Virus record (IMG/VR): IMGVR_UViG_3300037424_000947
Span: 1 to 45,267 of that record
Source of the DNA: a virus
Taxonomy: Duplodnaviria > Caudoviricetes
Direction: 5' to 3' (one strand)
DNA length: 45,267 nt
Below, piece by piece: positions 5,301 to 32,210 of the stretch. Position 1 is the stretch's first letter. Every line of letters begins with the position of its first letter. The position numbers and the translations under genes are program-made. The notes under the pieces were generated by a model. That model was not told the DNA's origin, did not search any database, and saw only the letters and a program-made list of their open reading frames with translations.

Positions 5301-7330
5301 ACCCCACCGCCCTCCCCCGCCCCGATGGCCGCGCCATTTTCCTCGGCGCGATGGCTGTCGCCTGCAAGCCGCGCAAGCGCCTCACGGTGAGCCAGTGGGC
5401 GGACGCGCATCGGCGGCTGTCGAACAAAGCCTCGAGCGAGCCGGGACAATGGCGCACGTCGCGCGTGCCATATCTGCGCGAGCCGATGGACTGCCTGTCG
5501 GTGCACTCGCCCGTGCAGAGCGCATCGATCATGAAGAGCGCGCAGACCGGTTTCACCGAGGTCGCGCTCAACTGGATCGGCTACGTGATGGACCACGCGC
5601 AGGCGCCGATGCTCGCCGTGGTGCCGACGCTGGACGTGCGCAAACGCTGGGTGCGCCAGCGCGTCGACCCGATGCTGGCCGACACGCCCACGCTTGCGGC
5701 GTTGTTCGATTCACGACGCAAACGCGACGGCGCGAACGCCGAGGAGATGAAGGACTTCCCCAATGGCATGCTCGTGATCGGCGGCGCCAACTCACCCGCC
5801 TCGCTCGCGTCGATGCCGATCAAGTACGTGGTGAATGACGAGGTGGACCGCTTCCCCTGGGAGGTCGGCGGCGAGGGCGACCCGCTCGGGTTGATCCGCA
5901 TGCGCCAGGCGAACTTCCCGCGGCGCAAGGAGCTGAACATCTCCTCGCCCACGGTCGAAGGCGCCTCACGCATCGAGGAGCTGTTCAACGCCGGCGACCA
6001 GCGCCACTACCACGTGCCCTGTCCGCACACCGAGTGCGGCGAGTTGCTGGTGCTGAAATGGAAGCAGCTGCAATGGCACATCGACAAGGCGACCGGCCAG
6101 GTGGCGCATGCGTGGTATGTGTGCGAGCACTGCGGCGCTGCGATCGACGAGCATCACAAAACCGAGATGCTCAAGGAAGTCGGCCACGGCGGCCGCGCGC
6201 GCTGGATACCCAAGCATCCCGGCCGCGCCGCGCGCAGCTACCACATCAATGGCCTCTATGCGCCGCTCGGTTTAGGCTTGCGCTGGGTAGAGCTGGCCGA
6301 TAACTGGCTCAAGGCCCAAGGCGACAAAACGAAGCTCAAGGTGTTCATCAACACCAAGCTCGGCGAGGTGTGGCAGGATCAGGACAAGAAAGTTGACCAC
6401 CGTTCGCTCAGCGAGCGCGCCGAGCCCTACGGCCTGCGCGAGATCCCGCTCGGTTGCCTGCTGCTCACCTGCGGGGTGGACGTGCAGGATGACCGCCTCG
6501 AGCTGCAGGTGCTCGGCCACGGTCGCGGCAAAGTCACGTGGACCATCGATAAGCTCGTGCTGCCGGGCGATCCCGCGCGCGATGAGGTGTGGGACCATCT
6601 CACCGACTATCTGATCAAGCCGTTCACCAACCAGTTCGGCCGCGAGCTCATGATCGAGGCGACCGGCATCGACACCGGCGGCCACCATACGCAGGACGTG
6701 TACAACTACGTGCGCAGCGTCACGCAGAACGTGTACAACTACGTGCGCAGCGTCAAGGAGCTGCAGGCGAAAAGGCGCCCGCGCCGGGTGATGGCAATGA
6801 AAGGCGCGAACACGCCCGGCAAGCCGATCCTCACTGGCCGCCCGCTGCCGCAAGACGTGAACCACCGTAACAAATACATCAAGCACGGCGTGCTGCTGTG
6901 GATGATCGGCACCGACACCGCCAAGGATCTGCTCAATTCGCGCCTCAAAGGCGACGCGAACCACGACGCCGGCTCGCGCCTGGTGCGCTTCTCAAACGCC
7001 TTGCCCGAGGATTTCTACCTGCAGCTCACCGCCGAGGTATTCGACCCCGAGCGCAACAAGTGGGTGAAGCTGCGCAACCGTCGGAATGAAGACCTCGACA
7101 CCTGGATCTACGGCACCGCCGCCGCCTACCACCCCGAGGTACGCGTGCACGCCATGCAGCCACGCGACTGGGCGCGCCTGGAGCTCATGCTCGAACCGAA
7201 AGACATCACGCCCGCGCCCACCGGCACCGCCGCGCCCGAGGCGATAACGCCCGCGCCCAAGGCCAAGCCCCGCAAACCGTCGGGCGACGGCGACGGCGGC
7301 GGCTTCGGCTCGTCGGACTGGAACCTGTAA
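5297..7330 (+). CDS. Terminase large subunit, lambda GpA family
   Basis: TVSQWAD, KSAQTGFTE (Walker A), VVNDEVD, SSPT, CPH...CEHC, GVDVQ and RNEDLD motifs. Confidence 0.95.
   Translation: MNPTALPRPDGRAIFLGAMAVACKPRKRLTVSQWADAHRRLSNKASSEPGQWRTSRVPYLREPMDCLSVHSPVQSASIMKSAQTGFTEVALNWIGYVMDHAQAPMLAVVPTLDVRKRWVRQRVDPMLADTPTLAALFDSRRKRDGANAEEMKDFPNGMLVIGGANSPASLASMPIKYVVNDEVDRFPWEVGGEGDPLGLIRMRQANFPRRKELNISSPTVEGASRIEELFNAGDQRHYHVPCPHTECGELLVLKWKQLQWHIDKATGQVAHAWYVCEHCGAAIDEHHKTEMLKEVGHGGRARWIPKHPGRAARSYHINGLYAPLGLGLRWVELADNWLKAQGDKTKLKVFINTKLGEVWQDQDKKVDHRSLSERAEPYGLREIPLGCLLLTCGVDVQDDRLELQVLGHGRGKVTWTIDKLVLPGDPARDEVWDHLTDYLIKPFTNQFGRELMIEATGIDTGGHHTQDVYNYVRSVTQNVYNYVRSVKELQAKRRPRRVMAMKGANTPGKPILTGRPLPQDVNHRNKYIKHGVLLWMIGTDTAKDLLNSRLKGDANHDAGSRLVRFSNALPEDFYLQLTAEVFDPERNKWVKLRNRRNEDLDTWIYGTAAAYHPEVRVHAMQPRDWARLELMLEPKDITPAPTGTAAPEAITPAPKAKPRKPSGDGDGGGFGSSDWNL
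6689..6754 (+). repeat. In-frame 33-bp tandem duplication in TerL
   Basis: ACGCAG(G/A)ACGTGTACAACTACGTGCGCAGCGTC twice, giving TQDVYNYVRSV-TQNVYNYVRSV. Confidence 0.9.
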
Positions 7331-7345
7331 ACGAGGAGAACAACG

Positions 7346-7606
7346 ATGGGAATTGAAGTGCATCCAGTTCAAATGCCCGGCGGCTGCTGTGGCCACGAGC
7401 CGGCCATGGCACCGAAGTCGGTAACGATGCGTGCGTACGAAGTCTACTGCCAACTCCACGGATCGCAGGAAGCGATAGTGACTGGCTGGTGCCGCGGAGG
7501 ATTCGCCATCGGCGAGCTGGTCGCCTTCCTGTATGCGCGTTCGTTTCCGCGCGAGGAGTGGCGCCAGCGGGTCGACGAGGCGCTGCGCGGGATGAAGAAC
7601 CTTTGA
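7346..7606 (+). CDS. Hypothetical protein
   Basis: 86 aa with strong GAGGAG RBS. Confidence 0.65.
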   Translation: MGIEVHPVQMPGGCCGHEPAMAPKSVTMRAYEVYCQLHGSQEAIVTGWCRGGFAIGELVAFLYARSFPREEWRQRVDEALRGMKNL

Positions 7607-7616
7607 CGCCCAACGC

Positions 7617-7958
7617 GTGAGCGGAACGATGGCCGAGGCGGACTTGATCGAGGCAATGCACGACGACCTCTATCGCCTGCTCACGCGCCTGGGCGTCGAG
7701 GATCTCACGGCACTGCGCGAGGCCGGCGCCCTGGTGGATGATCTGCAGCGCCGCTTCGGCGGCCGCGAGCACTACCTGCCGGCAGTGGACAAGGCCACCC
7801 GCAACGCCCGCATCGCGGCGGAGCTGGCCGCCGGCCACGATCCCCAGGAAGTAGCGGCCCGCCACGGCGTAAGCAAGAAGACCCTCGCGCGCGTGGCGCG
7901 CCGCACCCGGCGTGATGACGACGGCGGTGGCTTCGGCTCGCCGGAGTGGAATCTGTAG
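7617..7958 (+). CDS. Mor/C-family transcription activator (probable late regulator)
   Basis: FGGREHYLP...RNARI...EVAARHGVSKKTLARV matches the Mor/C pattern. Alternative start at 7629. Confidence 0.75.
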   Translation: MSGTMAEADLIEAMHDDLYRLLTRLGVEDLTALREAGALVDDLQRRFGGREHYLPAVDKATRNARIAAELAAGHDPQEVAARHGVSKKTLARVARRTRRDDDGGGFGSPEWNL

Positions 7959-8292: not shown

Positions 8293-8379
8293 ATTGACTT
8301 TAATCAGTCAATGCCCTATATTGTTTTACATGGCTGGACGATCCAGCCACCCGCGCCTCGGGGTCAACGGTGGGCAGGA
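8293..8379 (+). promoter_or_regulatory. Repeated expression cassette, copy 2
   Basis: TTGACT(8294)-17 bp-TATATT(8317); ATTGACT-N6-AGTCAAT; same leader and AGGA RBS as copy 1. Confidence 0.8.
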
Positions 8380-8386
8380 GACAAAG

Positions 8387-8788
8387 ATGGAAAACTTCAC
8401 CAACGTTTTCGCAGATGCCGACATCATCAGCCGCTACACCCGCGCGCAAGCGATTGAGGATGGCGTGCTCGTGGACCTGATGCAGGACAAGATGCTCGAT
8501 GTGTGCCGGCAGCACTACAAGCACCCGATCGCGGCCACTTCGGCGGTGTTCGACATCATGCAGCGCGCGGTCGAGAACAAGCGCCACTGCAACGACTACG
8601 CCGGCGTGCTGCACGACATGCTCTGGATGAGCCGCGTGTACAGCCGCAAGGTCGACGCCTCGACGGTGCTGTTCAAGGTCATCATCACCGGCGCCGCCCG
8701 CCAGCGCAATTTCGTGTTCAAGCTGGTGGTCGGCCCCGGCGACCAGGGCGAGCCGGTGATCACGATCATGATGCCGAACGAAGACTAA
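8387..8788 (+). CDS. DUF6573-like mobile-element protein
   Basis: YTRAQAIEDGVLVD N-terminal and GPGDQGEPVITIMMPNED C-terminal motifs; family recalled, not searched. Confidence 0.6.
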   Translation: MENFTNVFADADIISRYTRAQAIEDGVLVDLMQDKMLDVCRQHYKHPIAATSAVFDIMQRAVENKRHCNDYAGVLHDMLWMSRVYSRKVDASTVLFKVIITGAARQRNFVFKLVVGPGDQGEPVITIMMPNED

Positions 8789-21612: not shown

Positions 21613-21809
21613 ATGATCCCGTGATCCGTATGTCGGATTTGCGCGCGGGTCGTATGTGCAGCCGCGGGGCGCGGGCGTTTGCCGAACGCCATAATTTGGA
21701 TTGGCAAGACTTCCTGCGCAATGGTATTCCCGCGAGCAAGCTCGAGGCGACGGGCGATGCGATGATAATAAAAATCGTGGAGGCTATCCGTGGGCGGCAG
21801 CAGCAGTAA
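21609..21809 (+). CDS. Small tail-associated protein
   Basis: MCSRGARAFAERHNLDWQDFLRNGI motif typical of this tail module. Confidence 0.7.
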   Translation: MNDPVIRMSDLRAGRMCSRGARAFAERHNLDWQDFLRNGIPASKLEATGDAMIIKIVEAIRGRQQQ

Positions 21810-24800
21810 AAAACAAACTGTCGGCTACAAATATTTTCTGAGCGTGCATGCGATCCTGACGCATGGCCCGGTGGATCGCATATTGCGTCTGCAATTCGAC
21901 AAAAAGGACGCCTGGGTCGGGGATTCCACTGGCGGTCAGCTGAACGTCTATGCGCCTGAACTGTTTGGCGGAGATAAAAAGGAAGGTGGTGTATCGGGCC
22001 AGATCACGTTTGCGCCCGGCGCGCCGGATCAAATGCCCAATGCCCATCTCCAGAGTATTATTGGCGCCTCATTGCCTGCATTCCGGGGCGTTGCGGGTTT
22101 GGTTTTTGGTCCCCTTGTCTCCGGGCTGAGTTCTGCTGGTTTCTATTTTGGCATGAACCCATACCTGAAACCGTGGTCGGTGCGGCTTCAGCGCATTCAC
22201 AAAACCACCGACGGGGCAACGCAATGGAATGATGCCGTGGCCGAGATTCCCGCGGCCGTGGATCGACAGCCCGTGGGGGGTCCGGTCTGGCGGCCTCGCA
22301 ATACGGGCTATTTTGTTGTCGGCGCCTCGCAGGAGATCGACGGCGTTTACCGCAATCCCACGGACCAGAGCTGGCTGGATGGCTACATCGACAGCTTGCG
22401 CATCACCAAGGGCGTCGCGCGCTACACGACCAAAACATTTACACCGCCGAACGCACCATTCAACCAAGTCGACGATCCGTACTGGAACGAAACCCTCGCC
22501 GCGGTGTTGTATCACAATGGAGTGGCCATCGATTTAAAGGGCAATCCCGTTTCCGCCCTCATCTCCACGGACACCTCCAAATTCGGGACCACCTCCGCCA
22601 AATTCACCGACACGGTTGGCAGCTATGGAAGGATCGACGTCGGCGTCGGTAATGATGATCTCGGTGGTACTTTCACCATCGAAGCCTGGGTTTACATCAA
22701 CGGGCCCAGCTCGGGCCCTTATGCCTCGCCCATTCTCAGTGCGGGCGCGATCAATGTCTCCGGTTATGACACCGATTTCTATGTCGGTATTGATAGGTTC
22801 CTGCACTTCATACAGACGGGAGAGGTGCCGAACACCAACCTAGCGGGCATGCTCAATAAGGTGTCCTACGGCCGATGGACGTTTGTCACTCTGACGCGTG
22901 ACAACGTCTCGGGCCTGTATTACATGCATGCGGATGGTCGGCTGGTGACCGGCACGTCGACCGGGGCCAACATGAATCCGGTCCACATCATTCGCGAGTG
23001 TTTGACCGACCCCGACTGGGGCATGGGCTATCTCGCGTCGGATATCGATGATGCCTCTTTCCTCACCGCGGCCGATACGCTTGCCGATGAGTACATGGGC
23101 ATGTCGTTACTGTGGGATCGGCAAATGGCCATCGAGGATTTCATCAAGATAGTTGTCCAGCATATCGATGCAGCTTTATTTGTCAGCCGCACGACTGGCA
23201 AATTCATACTGAAGCTAATTCGGAATGATTACATTCCGGATAGCCTGCTCGTGCTGGACGTGAACAATGCAAATGTGTCTGACTACAGCTATCGGGCATT
23301 TGGTGAGCTGGTCAATGCCGTCACGGTGAATTATTGGGATGACGATAACAACGCTCAAGGTAGTGTCACAGTGTCTGACCCGGCGTTGGTCCAGGATCTG
23401 GGAGCCATCGGGACCACCGTGCAATATCCGGGATTTACCAATAAGGACCTGGCCGCGCAGGTAGCCCTGCGCGACCTGGTCTCTTTGTCCAGCCCGCTGC
23501 GATCCGCCACGATCTACGCCGGTATTACCGCGGCCAATCTCAATATCGGCGATCCATTCAAATTGGATTGGCCCGATTTTTCCGATACCCCGATCATCAT
23601 GCGCGTAATCGGACTTGCGCTGGGCGATGGAAAATCAAACCAGATCCGGATCACCGCGACCGAGGATCGTTTCGCTTTGCCCAGTTCGGGCGCGACCGCT
23701 CCTCCAGCGACCCAATGGACCGATCCCGTGGTGGCGCCCATACCCGCGACGGTGCGCGTGGTAATGGAAACTCCCTATTACGAGCTGGTCCAGCGCCAGG
23801 GGCAGACCATTATCGAGAACATTCTCGGCACGTCGCCCGAATCGGGTTATTTGATGGTCACCGCGCAGCGGCCCGAGGCGGCAATCAGGGCTGATATCCG
23901 TGTCGATGACGGCGGTGGATACGATGATCAGGGTATGTGCGATTTCAGTCCCGCAGCGACCCTGGTGAATTCCATTGGATACATGGATACGGTGCTCGAC
24001 GTCGTCGCCGGGCCGGACTTTAATTCGGTGGAAGACGGTACCTATGCATTGATGGGTAATGAACTCATCAAGATCGTCAGCGTCACGGATACCACTGTGA
24101 TCGTGGGCCGGGGCGTGTTGGATACCGTGCCCGGCGCACACGCGGCGGGAACGGCGATTATCTTTGTGGATGTCTATGCGGAAGTGGTGAATAAGGAATA
24201 TGTATTGAGCGAAACGATTAACGTCAAGCTTCTTCCAACCACGGGCGCGGGCACGCTCGATATTGCTGATGCGACTGCGGATGCGCTCATGTTTGCGCAG
24301 CGCGCGTTCAGACCCTACGCGCCAGGAAATCTGAAAATCAACGGGAGTTATTTTCCGCTAGCCATCCTGGGCGCAGCGAGCTTCACCTGGTCGCACCGCG
24401 ACCGAAAGCAACAGACATCGGGCGACCTGGTCGTGTTCACGGATGGCAACGTTGGCCCGGAGGCGGGCACCACCTACACGTTGGAGATCTACGGCGAGAC
24501 GGATGCCCTGCTGCGCACCGCGACCGGGCTCACGGGCACCAGTTACGATTATGCAGAAGCCGATGAAAAATCGGACAGCAATCTCACAGCGGGTGACGCC
24601 CCTCCGCCACCGGCGACTGCTATCCGTTCCGCCATGGGGGCAACTCTCACGGGCACTCAGAAATGGTATTTTAGTGTGCGGGGAGATAACGGCAGAATAT
24701 ATGGCGTGCCGCTTGAGGCCACGGACATCCTGATCATTGATCCCGAAGCGGGGACCGCTACCCGCTCCACCATGGGCGCGACCCTCACGGGCACGCTTAA

Positions 24801-26355
24801 ATGGATTGGTGGGGCGAAGGCCGCAAACGGAAAAATTTATTGCGTGCCTTACAATGCCCCGGACATCTTGATTATTGATCCTGGCACGGGAACAGCCAGC
24901 CGCTCCACCATGGGACTACCTTCCATGACGGACTTAGGCAAATGGGTTGGTGCCGTGTTGGGTAGTGATGGAAAAATTTATGGAGTGCCTGATGATTCTC
25001 CTGACATCCTGATCATTGATCCCGTTGCGGGGACCGCCATCCGCTCCACCATGGGGGCAACCTTGACGGGTACTCAAAAATGGCGCACCGGGGTGGCGGG
25101 CTTGGATGGCAAAATCTACTGCCCACCTTATAACGCCACGGACATCCTGATCATTGATCCCGTTGCGGGGACCGCCATCCGCTCCACCATGGGGGCAACC
25201 CTCACGGGTACTCAAAAATGGAACGGTTCTGTAGGCGCAAATAATCGCATCTATGCGGTGCCCTATGATGCCACGGACATCCTGATCATTGACCCCGTTG
25301 CGGGGACCGCCATCCGCTCCGCCATGGGGGCAACCCTCACGGGATCAGCCAAGTGGTTGGGAGGGGCATTGGCCAACGGTCGCATATATTGCATCCCTGT
25401 AGGGGCGACCGATCTTTTGATCATTGATCCGGTAATGGGGACAGCATCCCGTGATGCGATGGGCCTCACTCTTAGCGATACCAACAAATTCACCGGGGCA
25501 ACGGTGAGTATGAACGGGGTCCTTTATGGCAACCCGTATTCGTCTGAGACGGTGCTTGTGATCGAGCCCCGCCCTTTTGAATATGACCTTCTGGTGAATG
25601 AGGATTCACCCTCTGTGTTCTACAAATTCTGGGAGGTGTCCGGCACCACGGCCTATGACCAGAGCGGCAACGCGCGCAACGGTACGTATGTCAACGGTCC
25701 ACTTTTACAACAACCCGGGATTTTCTCCTTTGACAAGGGAGTTCATTACGACGGTATCAATGACCGCGTTACCGTCCCCGCCCTTACTTCACTGGTTGCT
25801 AGTGGATTCACGGTCGAGGTAATTGGTGTGCTGGACGACACCACCGTGGGCCGCTTTTTTGAGCTCACCGGCCAGGCTCCTTACTGTGTTTTGATACCCA
25901 ACTACATAGCGGGTGGGTTCCACGTCCAGGTTGGCAGCGTGGGGGGCATTAACGTCTCCGGCGTGGATTGCACTCAACCCCATGTTTTTACGCTGGTGCA
26001 AGAAACTACCGGGGCCTGGGAAATTTACGTGGATGGAGTCCAAAAAGGTTCTGGCACAAGCAATGGGATTCAATTGACCCCTGCCAATAACTATATCGGT
26101 GTTGCGGTAGACGGAGCTACCCAGCCACTCAAGGGCACCACCGTTCGATTTGCTTGGCACGCGGCACCGCTTACCCCTGCCCGAATTGCCCTGCGAGCGG
26201 CGGCAGCTCGCCAAATGCTGCTCCGTCTCAACAACAGCTTGCACATCCGGCTGAGTGCTCAGCGGGATGCCCTAGATAGTTTTCAGTCGCATGACTACAC
26301 GTTCGATCGAGCCGGCTACGGCTTCAACTATGGAAAATACTACGGAGGTGTGTAA
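21790..26355 (+). CDS. Central tail tip / host-specificity protein with LamG-like domains and beta-propeller repeats
   Basis: 1521 aa. VGYKY, PAFRGV, NPVHIIRECLTD and WSHRDR tip motifs; LamG-like GYIDSLRITKGVARY and FTIEAWV; seven internal repeats. Confidence 0.85.
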   Translation: MGGSSSKKQTVGYKYFLSVHAILTHGPVDRILRLQFDKKDAWVGDSTGGQLNVYAPELFGGDKKEGGVSGQITFAPGAPDQMPNAHLQSIIGASLPAFRGVAGLVFGPLVSGLSSAGFYFGMNPYLKPWSVRLQRIHKTTDGATQWNDAVAEIPAAVDRQPVGGPVWRPRNTGYFVVGASQEIDGVYRNPTDQSWLDGYIDSLRITKGVARYTTKTFTPPNAPFNQVDDPYWNETLAAVLYHNGVAIDLKGNPVSALISTDTSKFGTTSAKFTDTVGSYGRIDVGVGNDDLGGTFTIEAWVYINGPSSGPYASPILSAGAINVSGYDTDFYVGIDRFLHFIQTGEVPNTNLAGMLNKVSYGRWTFVTLTRDNVSGLYYMHADGRLVTGTSTGANMNPVHIIRECLTDPDWGMGYLASDIDDASFLTAADTLADEYMGMSLLWDRQMAIEDFIKIVVQHIDAALFVSRTTGKFILKLIRNDYIPDSLLVLDVNNANVSDYSYRAFGELVNAVTVNYWDDDNNAQGSVTVSDPALVQDLGAIGTTVQYPGFTNKDLAAQVALRDLVSLSSPLRSATIYAGITAANLNIGDPFKLDWPDFSDTPIIMRVIGLALGDGKSNQIRITATEDRFALPSSGATAPPATQWTDPVVAPIPATVRVVMETPYYELVQRQGQTIIENILGTSPESGYLMVTAQRPEAAIRADIRVDDGGGYDDQGMCDFSPAATLVNSIGYMDTVLDVVAGPDFNSVEDGTYALMGNELIKIVSVTDTTVIVGRGVLDTVPGAHAAGTAIIFVDVYAEVVNKEYVLSETINVKLLPTTGAGTLDIADATADALMFAQRAFRPYAPGNLKINGSYFPLAILGAASFTWSHRDRKQQTSGDLVVFTDGNVGPEAGTTYTLEIYGETDALLRTATGLTGTSYDYAEADEKSDSNLTAGDAPPPPATAIRSAMGATLTGTQKWYFSVRGDNGRIYGVPLEATDILIIDPEAGTATRSTMGATLTGTLKWIGGAKAANGKIYCVPYNAPDILIIDPGTGTASRSTMGLPSMTDLGKWVGAVLGSDGKIYGVPDDSPDILIIDPVAGTAIRSTMGATLTGTQKWRTGVAGLDGKIYCPPYNATDILIIDPVAGTAIRSTMGATLTGTQKWNGSVGANNRIYAVPYDATDILIIDPVAGTAIRSAMGATLTGSAKWLGGALANGRIYCIPVGATDLLIIDPVMGTASRDAMGLTLSDTNKFTGATVSMNGVLYGNPYSSETVLVIEPRPFEYDLLVNEDSPSVFYKFWEVSGTTAYDQSGNARNGTYVNGPLLQQPGIFSFDKGVHYDGINDRVTVPALTSLVASGFTVEVIGVLDDTTVGRFFELTGQAPYCVLIPNYIAGGFHVQVGSVGGINVSGVDCTQPHVFTLVQETTGAWEIYVDGVQKGSGTSNGIQLTPANNYIGVAVDGATQPLKGTTVRFAWHAAPLTPARIALRAAAARQMLLRLNNSLHIRLSAQRDALDSFQSHDYTFDRAGYGFNYGKYYGGV
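24613..25566 (+). repeat. About seven tandem ~45-aa repeats (putative beta-propeller blades)
   Basis: Recurring RSTMGATLTGTQKW...GKIY.VP..ATDILIIDP; three copies near-identical at DNA level (about 25004, 25141, 25277). Confidence 0.85.
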
Positions 26356-28887: not shown

Positions 28888-29154
28888 CTATCGCAGCTCA
28901 TCCACGATCCTCTCTGCCTGCGCATCCGACAGCGACAGTGCCGGCACGCCATTGCGATAGAGCACCATCTCGATCGCGATGCGCATCATGTAGTCCCGCA
29001 CCGGATCGGGTATCGACCGCGCGCCGCTGATCCACTCGTAGAGGCGGTTGCTCTGGTATCGCGTGCCGAGCACGCGATTGAGGTCGCGCAGGGCATCGGC
29101 CTTGGTGCGGCCGGGGATGAGCTCGGTGTCGAGCCAGGATTGCACGAGGGTCAT
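28888..29154 (-). CDS. Small HTH protein (Aca-like candidate)
   Basis: TKADALRDLNRVLGTRYQSNRLYEWISGARSIP is XRE-type HTH-like; last gene of a minus-strand operon; ATGA overlap. Confidence 0.6.
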   Translation of the reverse strand: MTLVQSWLDTELIPGRTKADALRDLNRVLGTRYQSNRLYEWISGARSIPDPVRDYMMRIAIEMVLYRNGVPALSLSDAQAERIVDELR

Positions 29155-29489
29155 ACGATGCCCAGGCGGGCCACGAGATCCGCACAGATGCGACGCTGCA
29201 CCGCCGCTACCGCCAGCGACGCCCGCGCGCGCGCGGTGGCAACAGGCGCGAACGCCCACATGCCATCGGGATTATCGAGCTGGAGATAGTAGCCGATCGT
29301 GATCGTCTCCGGGTCCTTGGGCGGCTGCTCGCCAGCGGCGCGCGCCTGGTCGCGCTCCGCGGCCAGTACCGGGGCGAGTGCCGCACGCCCCTCCTCGGTG
29401 GCGAGCGGGAATCGCCAGATCAGGCGATCGCCGATGTCACGCGCCGACTTCGCGGGGCGGACCTGGAATTGTTGACGGGTTGGATCCAT
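29151..29489 (-). CDS. Small orphan protein (anti-defence candidate)
   Basis: 112 aa, GAGGA RBS, coupled to the HTH gene. Confidence 0.6.
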   Translation of the reverse strand: MDPTRQQFQVRPAKSARDIGDRLIWRFPLATEEGRAALAPVLAAERDQARAAGEQPPKDPETITIGYYLQLDNPDGMWAFAPVATARARASLAVAAVQRRICADLVARLGIV

Positions 29490-29511
29490 CGGGTCTATCC
29501 TCGTTGCTGTT

Positions 29512-29622
29512 GTATTCCGGGCATCTGCCCGGCCTCATCGAAGTATCGAAGTCGGTACAAGCACCAGACTTCAACTGTGCACCATTCCGGCGGGGAGCAA
29601 TCCCCGCCGGCCTCATTGAAAC
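29512..29622 (+). CRISPR. Orphan two-repeat CRISPR-like unit with type I-G (I-U)-like repeats, no cas genes
   Basis: R1 GTATTCCGGGCATCTGCCCGGCCTCATCGAAGT (29512-29544); 37-nt spacer; R2 CCATTCCGGCGGGGAGCAATCCCCGCCGGCCTCATTGAAAC (29582-29622). Both share ATTCCGG-stem-CCGGCCTCAT(T/C)GAA. Confidence 0.65.
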
Positions 29623-29627
29623 CCCTC

Positions 29628-30038
29628 CTATTCTACGAGCACATGATGATGTGGCGGCCGCGCGCATACGCGGTAGCCGGGCACGTAGCCGGCTTCATAC
29701 CACACCAGCGGCGCGCCGCATACCGGGCACGGCGAGAAATCAGCCTGCTCCCACAGGGTGCCGATCTCGCCTGGGTATTCCGGTTCAATATCCATCCGCA
29801 GCGCGAGATGATCAGTGCCGACGATGCGCACCGCCACGACACCCTCTGGCACTGTATTGCCCAGCGCCACCGTGTAGATCTGATGCCCGCCATCCGCCGG
29901 CTCCGGCGTGATGCTGGCGCCGGCGCGCTGCAAGGCTTCGCGCGCTGGAATAGTCAGGCGCACGCGTTCATGCGGTCCCTGCTCGACGCTGGCGTGCTCG
30001 GGGAATAGGCCATCTCGTCTTTGATACGTGAGTTCCAT
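29628..30038 (-). CDS. Orphan protein with C-terminal Zn ribbon (anti-defence candidate)
   Basis: 136 aa from MELTYQ, AGGAG RBS, CPVCG...C....HH. Confidence 0.65.
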   Translation of the reverse strand: MELTYQRRDGLFPEHASVEQGPHERVRLTIPAREALQRAGASITPEPADGGHQIYTVALGNTVPEGVVAVRIVGTDHLALRMDIEPEYPGEIGTLWEQADFSPCPVCGAPLVWYEAGYVPGYRVCARPPHHHVLVE

Positions 30039-30126
30039 GTGATTCTCCTGCTGCGGTCCGCCGCAGCTATCGGGTGTAGCGAGTGCCCACCAGTGAGCCG
30101 GCTCTGACCCGGCTCTAGCTGGGCAC

Positions 30127-30447
30127 TCAATAATCGTGCTGGCAGGATGCGCAATCAGATGGCCGGGGGCGCCCCTCGATGCTACCGCACGAGCAACCGG
30201 TCCAATTCGTGCGCGCCATGCGGGCATCCCGGCGGGTCCCGATCGAGCTGTACGAGCCCGTGCGCGCCCCTTTCTCGATGGCGCAGAGCGCCACCCCATT
30301 GCCGCGCCAGAGCACACGAGCAATGATCTCCGTCTTGGTCTCGCCGGATTTTTTTGCAACGACCACGGACTGGCCGTCGCTGACAGACTCGGTGGGTACG
30401 CGCACACCCCAGTCGCCGTTCTTGAGCTTGGTGTAGGTTGCTTGCAT
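30127..30447 (-). CDS. Small orphan protein, first gene of accessory operon
   Basis: 106 aa, GAGGAG RBS, C-terminal CSC...CASC. Confidence 0.7.
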   Translation of the reverse strand: MQATYTKLKNGDWGVRVPTESVSDGQSVVVAKKSGETKTEIIARVLWRGNGVALCAIEKGARTGSYSSIGTRRDARMARTNWTGCSCGSIEGRPRPSDCASCQHDY

Positions 30448-30523
30448 GTGGATCTCCTCAGCATTCTGCTTAGGTCCGCCTGATCCCCGGCGGCGGGTGG
30501 TAGCTCATCTACCCATGAGCTAA

Positions 30524-30552
30524 ATGATAGTCCCGCATGTGGGACTACGCAA
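30524..30552 (-). promoter_or_regulatory. sigma70 promoter with palindromic operator
   Basis: Minus strand TTGCGT-17 bp-TATCAT; palindrome TAGTCCC-N6-GGGACTA (30528-30547) fills the spacer. Confidence 0.75.
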
Positions 30553-30583
30553 GAGGGGAAGGGGATCAGCCGACGAACGGTAT

Positions 30584-30597
30584 GTTTCCCGGGAAAC
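30584..30597. promoter_or_regulatory. parS/NBS-like site 4, GTTTCCCGGGAAAC
   Basis: Perfect 14-bp palindrome identical to the core of site 3. Confidence 0.6.
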
Positions 30598-30605
30598 CGG
30601 AGGGA

Positions 30606-32210
30606 TCAGGCGACCCGGTAAGCCTTGAATTTACGGGGATTCTTACTGCCAAACTCTTCCCCCGCTACCATATTTAGAATCAGGCCGCCGAACCCGGCGA
30701 CCTGAGCCCACACCGCCCCGCTCTCATCCTGAGTCAATTCAATCTCGCCGAGCAGCTCGCCCAGCGCCTCACGGGCTGCCGCGGGCTCGGTCGCCATCAG
30801 TGCGGGCAGATCGGACACGCGTGCTTGGTAGTGCTCGATGAGCCGCGGGATCATGTTCGGCGGCGCTGGTGCCGGCAGCTCGACGAGGTCCGCCTGCAGT
30901 GCCCGGCGCTCGGCTTCGGCTTTTTTCAGCCGTTCTGCCACCGCCTGCGACCAGCCCGCGGCCGCCACTGCGTCGACGAGTCGGGCGATCTCGCGATCGA
31001 CCGTGGCCAGCCTGGTGCGGGCAGCGCGGCCGGCCGTCTCGTGCTCGCGGTGCATCGTGCGCTGCAGCGTGGCCACCTCCTGGCGTAGCACTGTGATCGC
31101 CTCATCGTCCAATAGTTCACTCCGCGCGATCCCCAATACCGCCGCCTCGAGCTCGGCGCGTTTCACCCGCACACCGGCGCACACTGTCGGCCCGCGGTCC
31201 TTGTGCGCGGTGCAGCCATACGCGCCCGCGGTCACCGCCGTTACTGATCCGCCGCAGTGGCCGCATTTCAGGAGGCCGGAGAGCGGCGCGCGTTTCGGTT
31301 TTCCGGGCTTCGTTCGCTTGGGTCCGTTGATGCGTTCCGCGCATGCGGTCCACAGCTCCTCAGACACTATGCGCAGCGCCGGAGTTTCCCGCGTCTGCCA
31401 CTGATCGCGCGAGCGCTCGAGGCGCCGGCGCCGGCCTGTGTCTGGATCTTTCACCCACTGCGAGCGATTCCATATATACATGCCGCGATACAGCTCATTG
31501 CGCAGCACGCCCGTGCCGTATTTCGGCTGGCCGTAGAGCGCGCTGATGGCCCAGGAGCTGCCGCGCGGTGAGGGCACGCCGAGCCGGTTGAGCTCGTAAA
31601 CGATGCGCCGCGGCGCCCAGCCTTCGGCGTAGTGCTCGAAGCACCAGCGCACCCACTTGGCCTGCTCCTCGTGCACCTCAAGATAGTGGCCGATCGGCTC
31701 GCCCTTGGCGTCGAGGCCGGCGACGCGCGTGCGGTAGCCATAGCTTAAACCCCCGGCATGGTAGCCGCGCTCGGTCTGCCCGGTGAGGCCTCGGTGCACC
31801 TTCTTGCCGAGGTCGCGCAGGTACTGCTGATTGACGCCGCCGATGATGACGCGCTGCAGCTCACGGCCTTCGCGCTCCGAATCGTAGCCGTCGCTGATCC
31901 CGATGATGCGCACCCCGAGCCGCTCCATCTCGCGGATGGTGCGCTCCTGGTCGACGATATCGCGCCAGCACCGGTCGAGCGACTCGATGAGTAGCACGTC
32001 GACGCGCCCAGCGCGGATCGCCTCCATGAGCGCGCGGCCGCCGGGGCGCAGCAACGTGGGCGTGCCGGCGGAAACCTCGCTATCGGAGAAGCGCAGCGCC
32101 GGCAGCCAATCTTCACGCTGCATGCGCACGTCGGCCAGGTGGAACTGGTCGGCGATCGAGGTCTCGCGTTGGTTTTCGCTTGAGTAGCGGGCGTAAATAG
32201 CCGTCCTCAT
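30606..32210 (-). CDS. Large serine recombinase (integrase)
   Basis: IYARYSS catalytic Ser, SLDR, YGY recombinase domain, LSGLLKCGHCG Zn ribbon, coiled coil. Confidence 0.95.
   Translation of the reverse strand: MRTAIYARYSSENQRETSIADQFHLADVRMQREDWLPALRFSDSEVSAGTPTLLRPGGRALMEAIRAGRVDVLLIESLDRCWRDIVDQERTIREMERLGVRIIGISDGYDSEREGRELQRVIIGGVNQQYLRDLGKKVHRGLTGQTERGYHAGGLSYGYRTRVAGLDAKGEPIGHYLEVHEEQAKWVRWCFEHYAEGWAPRRIVYELNRLGVPSPRGSSWAISALYGQPKYGTGVLRNELYRGMYIWNRSQWVKDPDTGRRRRLERSRDQWQTRETPALRIVSEELWTACAERINGPKRTKPGKPKRAPLSGLLKCGHCGGSVTAVTAGAYGCTAHKDRGPTVCAGVRVKRAELEAAVLGIARSELLDDEAITVLRQEVATLQRTMHREHETAGRAARTRLATVDREIARLVDAVAAAGWSQAVAERLKKAEAERRALQADLVELPAPAPPNMIPRLIEHYQARVSDLPALMATEPAAAREALGELLGEIELTQDESGAVWAQVAGFGGLILNMVAGEEFGSKNPRKFKAYRVA
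30650..30670 (+). other. Putative attP core resembling a tRNA-fMet 3' end
   Basis: CAAACTCTTCCCCCGCTACCA ends in CCCCGCTACCA and lies inside the integrase 3' end. Confidence 0.5.

Follow-up and report, generated by a model that had tools for sequence, protein, structure and literature searches.

The closest described counterparts of the unit reported here are small RNAs that imitate CRISPR repeats. In the portions of the Racr paper drawn on here (Camara-Wilpert et al. 2023, PMC10651486), all Racrs put to the test are solitary repeats, drawn from subtypes I-C, I-E, I-F and V-A only; the inhibitory product of RacrIF1 lacks a handle, and RacrIC1 is co-transcribed with acrIC5. The supplement also catalogues 50 occurrences of I-G SRUs, with two to a row in the 15 rows considered; contig L066 harbours one of these SRUs. 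Cracr RNAs are described for V-A, I-F, I-E, I-C and I-B, the term "I-G" being absent from the main text, and they require at least nine PAM-proximal bases that match the spacer of a host CreR/CreA (Liu et al., bioRxiv 10.1101/2024.10.29.618823). According to the sections of Shmakov et al. (PMC10120712) considered here, regulatory mini-arrays consist of two repeats 20-60 nt apart with conserved spacer-side flanks and variable stems, and are located in anti-CRISPR loci; the viral examples belong to I-B and I-F1 and have identified promoter targets, viral mini-array spacers chiefly target other viruses, and I-G appears once, in a table, with a mini-array in 4% of 235 host loci. For type I-G itself, the relevant passages of PMC9638904 report that Csb2 cuts 4 nt beyond the repeat stem, leaving an 8-nt handle, and binds the hairpin product (KD 43 nM) and not the handle, and that seven Cas7 subunits cover 42 nt of RNA in the complex.

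In the window, by which we mean the whole 45,267-nt stretch of phage DNA analysed, an earlier note had pointed to an orphan pair of type I-G-like repeats as a candidate RNA anti-CRISPR or mini-array. The coordinates and sequences that it gave for the repeats, the spacer and the promoter boxes were all exact on re-check, and its anatomy stood; it overlooked the 8-nt handle copy that opens the spacer as well as a Cracr reading of the unit. In full, R1, spacer and R2 take up 111 of 138 intergenic bases, with a minus-strand ORF on each side:

29472-29501, plus strand: candidate sigma-70 promoter, weak; TTGACG at 29472-29477, an 18-nt gap and TATCCT at 29496-29501
29512-29544, plus strand: R1, 33 nt, type I-G-like, 6-bp stem at 29517-29532
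29537-29544, plus strand: altered 8-nt handle of R1; Csb2 cut predicted after 29536 (geometry from the parts of PMC9638904 used)
29545-29581, plus strand: pseudo-spacer, 37 nt, with a 9-bp hairpin
29582-29622, plus strand: R2, 41 nt, type I-G-like, 10-bp stem at 29587-29610 with a GCAA loop
after 29614, plus strand: predicted Csb2 cut in R2 (same geometry, PMC9638904)
29537-29614, plus strand: predicted crRNA mimic of 78 nt, deduced from the cut geometry

Compared with the Racrs, as far as the portions of the paper used describe them, the unit likewise mimics a repeat between the genes of a virus, with no cas gene found, a cut-competent hairpin and small early genes nearby; it differs in having two repeats and a spacer, a product that would keep its 5' handle, and an orientation antisense to the operon. 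The intergenic, cas-less setting of a Racr was found, in a record that is about 71% complete, whereas the definition also calls for a solitary repeat with at least 90% identity to a known repeat, and here two repeats stand 37 nt apart, each below 90% against the host repeats aligned. By this solitary-repeat definition the unit is no Racr. With the Cracrs, which compete for Cas proteins, it shares the form of a mini-array on viral DNA in which degenerate repeats enclose a pseudo-spacer; unlike those in the sections of the preprint considered, its spacer has, in 31 I-G loci, no PAM-proximal match of at least nine bases that exceeds the level of shuffled sequences. The 37-nt distance, the conserved flanks and the variable stems correspond to the regulatory mini-arrays in the parts of PMC10120712 used. 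Hairpin, 4 nt, 8-nt handle and the 42-nt distance correspond to the I-G repeat and its Csb2 processing as given in the passages used of PMC9638904, whereas stems of 6 and 10 instead of 7-8 bp, altered handles and the lack of a cas operon or long array set the unit apart. In its presumed mode of action the unit comes closest to a Racr, in its construction to a Cracr. As our best explanation, to which we give a little less than an even chance, the unit is a non-targeting decoy crRNA directed against a host type I-G system. This was one of the readings put forward in the earlier note, and it remains the best option.

Repeat family, folding and predicted processing

Under a search rule of a stem of at least 6 bp and a tail with at most two substitutions, R1 and R2 are the sole units of the window, and 200 order-3 Markov simulated genomes gave a chance expectation of 0.045 single units per genome and no pairs. 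Both fold into perfect hairpins followed by 12 unpaired bases (R1: 6 bp, -12.1 kcal/mol, z -2.3; R2: 10 bp, -23.2 kcal/mol, z -4.5), which bears out the observation that the stems have diverged and still pair between conserved flanks. The longest ungapped stretch common to R1 and R2 is 14 nt at 93%, and the stems are unlike, so that the repeats lack the near-identity of a targeting mini-array. None of 4227 Rfam families exceeded its gathering score on the unit, the exact repeat-pair pattern had no match in the viral contigs scanned, and a DNA-similarity search with the unit in 50,697 phage and 72,556 plasmid records returned nothing with 80% coverage.

A pattern scan of bacterial genomes gave 33 rows, corresponding to 32 distinct loci (27 without overlap), with the repeat frame of R1 and R2. 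Nearly all of them are long arrays of 36-37-nt repeats that have the 5' flank, a CCGG-based stem and the tail as in R1 and R2. Type I-G cas genes above the cut-off (cas8g1, csb1, csb2, cas3g and cas4g/1g were counted) are present in 8 of the 10 bacterial loci scanned, the scan covering 46 of 209 listed ORFs; in the remaining two, L010 and L021, a cas gene was absent among the ORFs supplied. Comparison of both repeats with CRISPR arrays thus revealed a family resemblance, and the assignment to type I-G is upheld by the common frame and the adjacent I-G cas genes: 5' flank, hairpin and 12-nt tail are those of the arrays beside such genes. The canonical form of 36-37 nt, a 7-8-bp stem and a ATTGAAGC handle is not preserved in the window, where the repeats measure 33 and 41 nt and their stems 6 and 10 bp. 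Host stems have 7-8 bp in 27 of 27 arrays, and 897 of 904 host tails carry the consensus with none equal to either window handle, a count that is biased by a search pattern favouring the consensus. Against the arrays fetched in this analysis, R1 reaches about 83-86% identity at best, and R2 less.

Since the published Csb2 geometry, with a tail of 4 + 8 nt after the stem, fits the plus strand alone, this strand is the crRNA-sense strand, and it does run opposite to the surrounding minus-strand operon, both as previously proposed. Cutting at the two predicted sites would yield a 78-nt RNA that begins with an 8-nt handle, continues for 42 nt up to the following hairpin, of 10 bp, and ends in a 4-nt tail. 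The handle-to-hairpin distance of 42 nt falls within the host mode, 657 of 899 host junctions lying at 40-43 nt. Csb2 processing and Cas7 loading call for conserved cut-site flanks, perfect stems and host spacing, all of which the unit has and which support the decoy; moreover, with Csb2 bound to the hairpin product instead of the handle, changes in the handle may be tolerated. A point that weakens the decoy is the predicted fold of a 174-nt transcript, in which 4 of the 12 bases that make up the R1 tail at the cut site are paired. Another is the precedent of the Racrs, which were tested as solitary repeats and, in the case of RacrIF1, inhibit through a product devoid of a handle.

Origin of the spacer and the search for targets

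The first eight bases of the spacer (29545-29552) are an exact copy of the last 8 nt of R1, that is, of its handle. Both 8-mer copies contain the two private handle changes of R1, which occur in 0 of 904 host tails, and this points to a seed that was made locally and not captured. Despite the 8-nt duplication, host-like spacing is retained. The spacer hairpin has -10.5 kcal/mol on the plus strand; its minus-strand counterpart is longer and has greater stability (-13.2 kcal/mol). An unusually structured spacer, which was considered as a further hallmark, lost weight given that an equally good fold is reached by 297 of 858 host spacers or, with GC content matched, by 9 of 162. The stronger minus-strand fold and the unremarkable structure among host spacers both weaken the decoy.

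Searches for a target gave only background in the phage's own genome. In 31 I-G loci (507 kb), nothing behind a TTN PAM rose above the shuffled background; the best match, 12/15, was attained in 27 of 100 shuffles and is remote from cas genes. Viral contigs, for which an exact 16-mer was required, contributed 15 loci with at best 25/37 matched positions and no TTN PAM, and 50,697 phage and 72,556 plasmid records contained no protospacer.

These results bear on a Cracr-type guide, in which the 78-nt RNA would lead the I-G Cascade of the host to a cas or toxin promoter by a partial seed match and a TTN PAM and thereby repress it. Conserved spacer-side flanks and variable stems are the anatomy of viral regulatory mini-arrays in the sections of PMC10120712 used, and the host units in L039 and L038 described below indicate that a circuit to mimic seems present in I-G. 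Given that the eight PAM-proximal bases are a local duplication and that the best TTN-PAM match belongs to the shuffled background and is distant from cas genes, we regard such a guide as distinctly unlikely. A promoter target of the spacer may nevertheless exist in the true host, which weakens the decoy. The same searches speak against a working guide that uses host Cascade and Cas3 on a rival phage, a form of superinfection exclusion by the prophage. Such an inter-phage mini-array would agree with the canonical spacer length, with a phage that is likely temperate and with the preference of viral mini-array spacers for other viruses in the passages of PMC10120712 considered; confronted with the poor viral matches, the empty phage and plasmid records, a seed that copies the handle and two strongly unlike repeats, it is very improbable.

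We favour the non-targeting decoy over a targeting RNA because no target was found and because the first eight spacer bases copy the R1 handle. The repeat family, the hairpins, the spacing, the orientation and the duplicated handle are observed, and from transcription onward we infer the following course. The weak plus-strand promoter would start a transcript just before R1, and host Csb2 would cut it after 29536 and 29614 and stay bound to both hairpins. The 78-nt product could then load a Cas7 backbone and Cas8g and guide them nowhere, so that Csb2 and Cas7 would be drawn off the host crRNAs. The antisense position would spare the operon mRNA from Csb2 cutting.

Transcription, operon and phage context

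The candidate plus-strand promoter stops 10 nt short of R1 and overlaps the start and RBS of the adjacent ORF-A. It scores 9/12, with 0.5 such sites expected per shuffled 1.9-kb region, and a similar site 5-40 nt upstream is found at just 10 of 3614 random positions. The -10 box TATCCT is the reverse complement of the ORF-A RBS, and the same RBS occurs in a homolog without repeats. The -35 box lies within the ORF-A coding sequence at codons 5-6, where the Arg codon is rare in the phage (41/555) and the Gln codon frequent at gene starts (10/14). The random-position count together with the codon use offers modest support for a promoter, as judged from sequence. The earlier proposal thus holds for the boxes, their positions and the rarity of the site by chance; on the other side, the site is weak and its -10 box is accounted for by the conserved RBS. 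In a terminator scan, no plus-strand terminator was detected at the unit. The decoy is weakened by this result, by the explained -10 box and by the -35 box in coding sequence.

The unit is surrounded by four small minus-strand ORFs that extend from 30447 down to 28888, with the integrase gene upstream:

28888-29154, minus strand: terminal operon gene, 88 aa, predicted HTH/XRE-like fold, Aca-like position
29151-29489, minus strand: ORF-A, 112 aa, two relatives by protein search and one metagenome locus
29628-30038, minus strand: ORF-B, 136 aa, with homologs in 9 viral loci; a zinc ribbon is possible from its C-terminal cysteine pairs
30127-30447, minus strand: ORF-C, 106 aa, opens the operon; weak DUF5710 in some relatives
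30524-30552, minus strand: candidate operon promoter, TTGCGT, 17 nt, TATCAT, found by eye, the two boxes enclosing an inverted repeat of 6-7 bp
30606-32210, minus strand: large serine recombinase (integrase), PF00239, PF07508 and PF13408

Searched against Pfam, PHROGs and NCBIfam, the four operon proteins matched no family and no known Acr above the cut-off. The model of the 88-aa terminal protein consists of five helices (pLDDT 83). Comparison with the PDB by sequence or Foldseek gave nothing at E <= 0.001, and a wide structural search placed Aca7 on top of a list of many HTH proteins (Z 6.6 against the tool's bar of 8, rmsd 3.6, 61 aligned). The inverted repeat at 30529 is a possible operator by eye and was scored as terminator-like by the scan tool; this hairpin may be the end of the integrase transcript. 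The description of the operon as "acr/aca-style" is plausible but tentative, supported by the predicted HTH fold of the terminal gene product and the upstream palindrome, and limited by a generic fold, with Aca7 below the bar, and by the lack of a named family. Elsewhere, ORF-C homologs are often the first genes of small-gene operons, directly behind promoter-like inverted-repeat sites (L208, L209, L212). The gap at 30040-30130 contains two strong minus-strand hairpins (-48.4 kcal/mol, z -4.4), a possible mRNA stabiliser or RNase III site, and the gap between integrase and operon (30450-30605) contains several inverted repeats, where attP may sit besides the operon promoter.

The phage is tailed, with genes for terminase, portal, capsid, tail and a serine integrase, and the large serine recombinase gene makes it likely temperate. 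Its record is estimated to be 71% complete. Among 53 ORFs (17 + 36) of this record compared with Pfam there is no cas gene, and a Cas1 search of the window was negative (0/1) with a control positive in 7 of 14 genomes, so that the claim of a cas-less window holds within this scope; a corresponding Csb2 search (0/1) is uninformative, its control being positive nowhere. The terminase matches proteobacterial phages at about 41%, and the best match of the integrase is 46% (7 of 401 genomes). Neither 19 kb of phage DNA compared with 5 I-G genomes nor 1081 + 37 host spacers compared with the phage gave a match, full-length in the case of the spacers. With the serine integrase only 1 kb away, the repeat was also considered as an integrase attachment site. 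Further features of the genome are a DUF6573 gene between the terminase and portal genes (8330-8788, plus strand), likely with its own upstream region, a 1521-aa tail protein (21790-26355, plus strand) with about eight 44-aa internal, propeller-like repeats and two lectin-like domains, and a 14-nt direct repeat at 2490-2568, 65 nt apart and right after the primase gene, as a possible replication origin.

A convincing I-G unit is missing from the 51 loci that contain an ORF-A, ORF-B or ORF-C homolog, where 3 weak matches with three substitutions turned up, and the one metagenome locus with an ORF-A homolog is without repeats. Close viral-contig relatives were found neither for ORF-A (0 of 47 candidates) nor by the HTH alignment (0 of 45); the nearest protein matches stand at 89%, 77% and 59%. 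With the 51 loci lacking it, the unit looks like a lineage-specific insert. Its absence from the 51 loci weakens the decoy and agrees with a relic or passenger, namely a piece captured from an I-G array or a regulatory mini-array, from which no functional RNA arises any more and whose hairpins may just stabilise or punctuate the minus-strand mRNA. The weak plus-strand promoter, two handles off the 897/904 host consensus, the strong hairpins in the other operon gap (z -4.4) and the minus-strand preference of the spacer hairpin point in the same direction. A mere relic is hard to reconcile with stems that are still perfect despite altered length and sequence, with intact cut-site flanks in both repeats, with retained host spacing and with similar units in at least 25 other viral cases, and we therefore consider it unlikely, if still worth serious attention.

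Viral and host counterparts and their meaning

Pattern scans of viral DNA gave 7 and at least 121 loci, 80 of them with full flanks. Restriction to intergenic cases with 1-3 repeats, a stem of 6 bp or more and a called gene on either side left at least 25 units. Among the 25 viral I-G units in the matches listed, 13 are antisense to both neighbours, 8 are sense and 4 are mixed, strand calls being approximate owing to a crude gene caller that missed three short genes of the window. The antisense placement, put forward in the earlier note as unusual, is common instead; an enrichment of antisense units among these 25 is not significant (13 vs 8, p 0.38).

The orientation is also relevant for an antisense blocker, in which anti-repeats in the operon mRNA would block processing by pairing with the single-stranded repeat tails of host pre-crRNA, where Csb2 cuts. 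The anti-repeats do lie within the likely operon transcript, pairing with 12 host repeat variants is predicted at -15.0 to -27.7 kcal/mol for anti-R1 and -16.1 to -19.1 kcal/mol for anti-R2, 2 of the 3 handle changes yield G-U pairs, and the 13 of 25 viral units antisense to both neighbours, among the matches listed, have the same arrangement. However, such pairing holds for any reversed repeat (a perfect antisense reaches -50.6) and needs neither a lengthened stem nor canonical spacer length, the anti-tails are predicted to be partly buried, with 7 and 5 of 12 bases at <=0.1 unpaired, the orientation bias is not significant, and the 7 papers that a literature search gave, judged by titles and abstract openings, describe no comparable phage RNA. 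A blocker of this kind therefore appears highly doubtful. Just as little credence goes to a broader proposal, according to which phages facing I-G share a family of engineered-looking mini-units with a handle-copy guide start and the window unit works on two strands, the plus strand as a full-length blank guide and sponge for Csb2 and Cas7 and the mRNA anti-repeats as a mask over the pre-crRNA cut site.

On the repeat-sense strand, 5 of the 25 viral units listed have a terminator-like and 3 a promoter-like site. Some other viral I-G units among these matches thus carry their own transcription signals, which supports the decoy. L092 combines both kinds of site on the sense strand and is antisense to its neighbours; like L102, it has two repeats with unequal stems, altered distal handles and clear intrinsic terminators, and L050 contains three divergent repeats. 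In L093 a promoter-like site lies 12 nt ahead of the repeat, and L099 holds two separate units. Together with L003 and L115, these five are viral I-G mini-units with divergent repeats and good test candidates.

A copy of the handle end (at least 4 bases) starts the post-repeat sequence at 5 of 48 other viral junctions compared with 2 of 858 host spacers (Fisher p 7e-6; 6/49 including the window), although some purine-rich cases may be chance. The copies are 4 nt long in L004, L064, L092, L122 and L145 and 8 nt in the window (29537-29552). In L004 the handle copy is in tandem, which could let the guide match the locus it comes from, behind the TTG of the repeat. Five other viral pseudo-spacers with 13/15 matches to I-G loci were put down to chance in view of the many queries.

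Two host loci contain CreR-like units of two repeats. The unit of L039 (~6700-6810) sits between divergent cas3g and cas4g/1g and has a TTN-PAM target at 6688 on the minus strand (12/15), and that of L038 (~7530-7630) has one at 7456, also on the minus strand (13/15). Each target is the best in its locus, lies just upstream and was reached in 0 of 2000 shuffles. Sequence thus suggests RNA-guided self-repression in type I-G.

RNA decoys are a known phage trick, and type I-G is a little-studied subtype. The window unit is not unique: similar units number a few dozen, and the Racr supplement contains I-G solitary repeats as well. Neither of the two defining papers on phage anti-CRISPR RNAs tests type I-G, and among 20 of 79 titles from a literature search on I-G anti-CRISPRs, none dealt with an I-G inhibitor. 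The subtype is peculiar in that the 5' handle is gripped by no subunit and Csb2 sits on the 3' hairpin, and for this reason a decoy may work differently from RacrIF1. As a reconstituted I-G system exists, the 111-base unit and its at least 25 viral counterparts are directly testable. If true, the two-strand proposal would make the unit the first demonstrated RNA inhibitor of type I-G, with an antisense mode new to class 1 CRISPR, and a working inhibitor would be an off-switch for I-G editing. On the host side, the CreR-like units suggest that type I-G also regulates itself by RNA.
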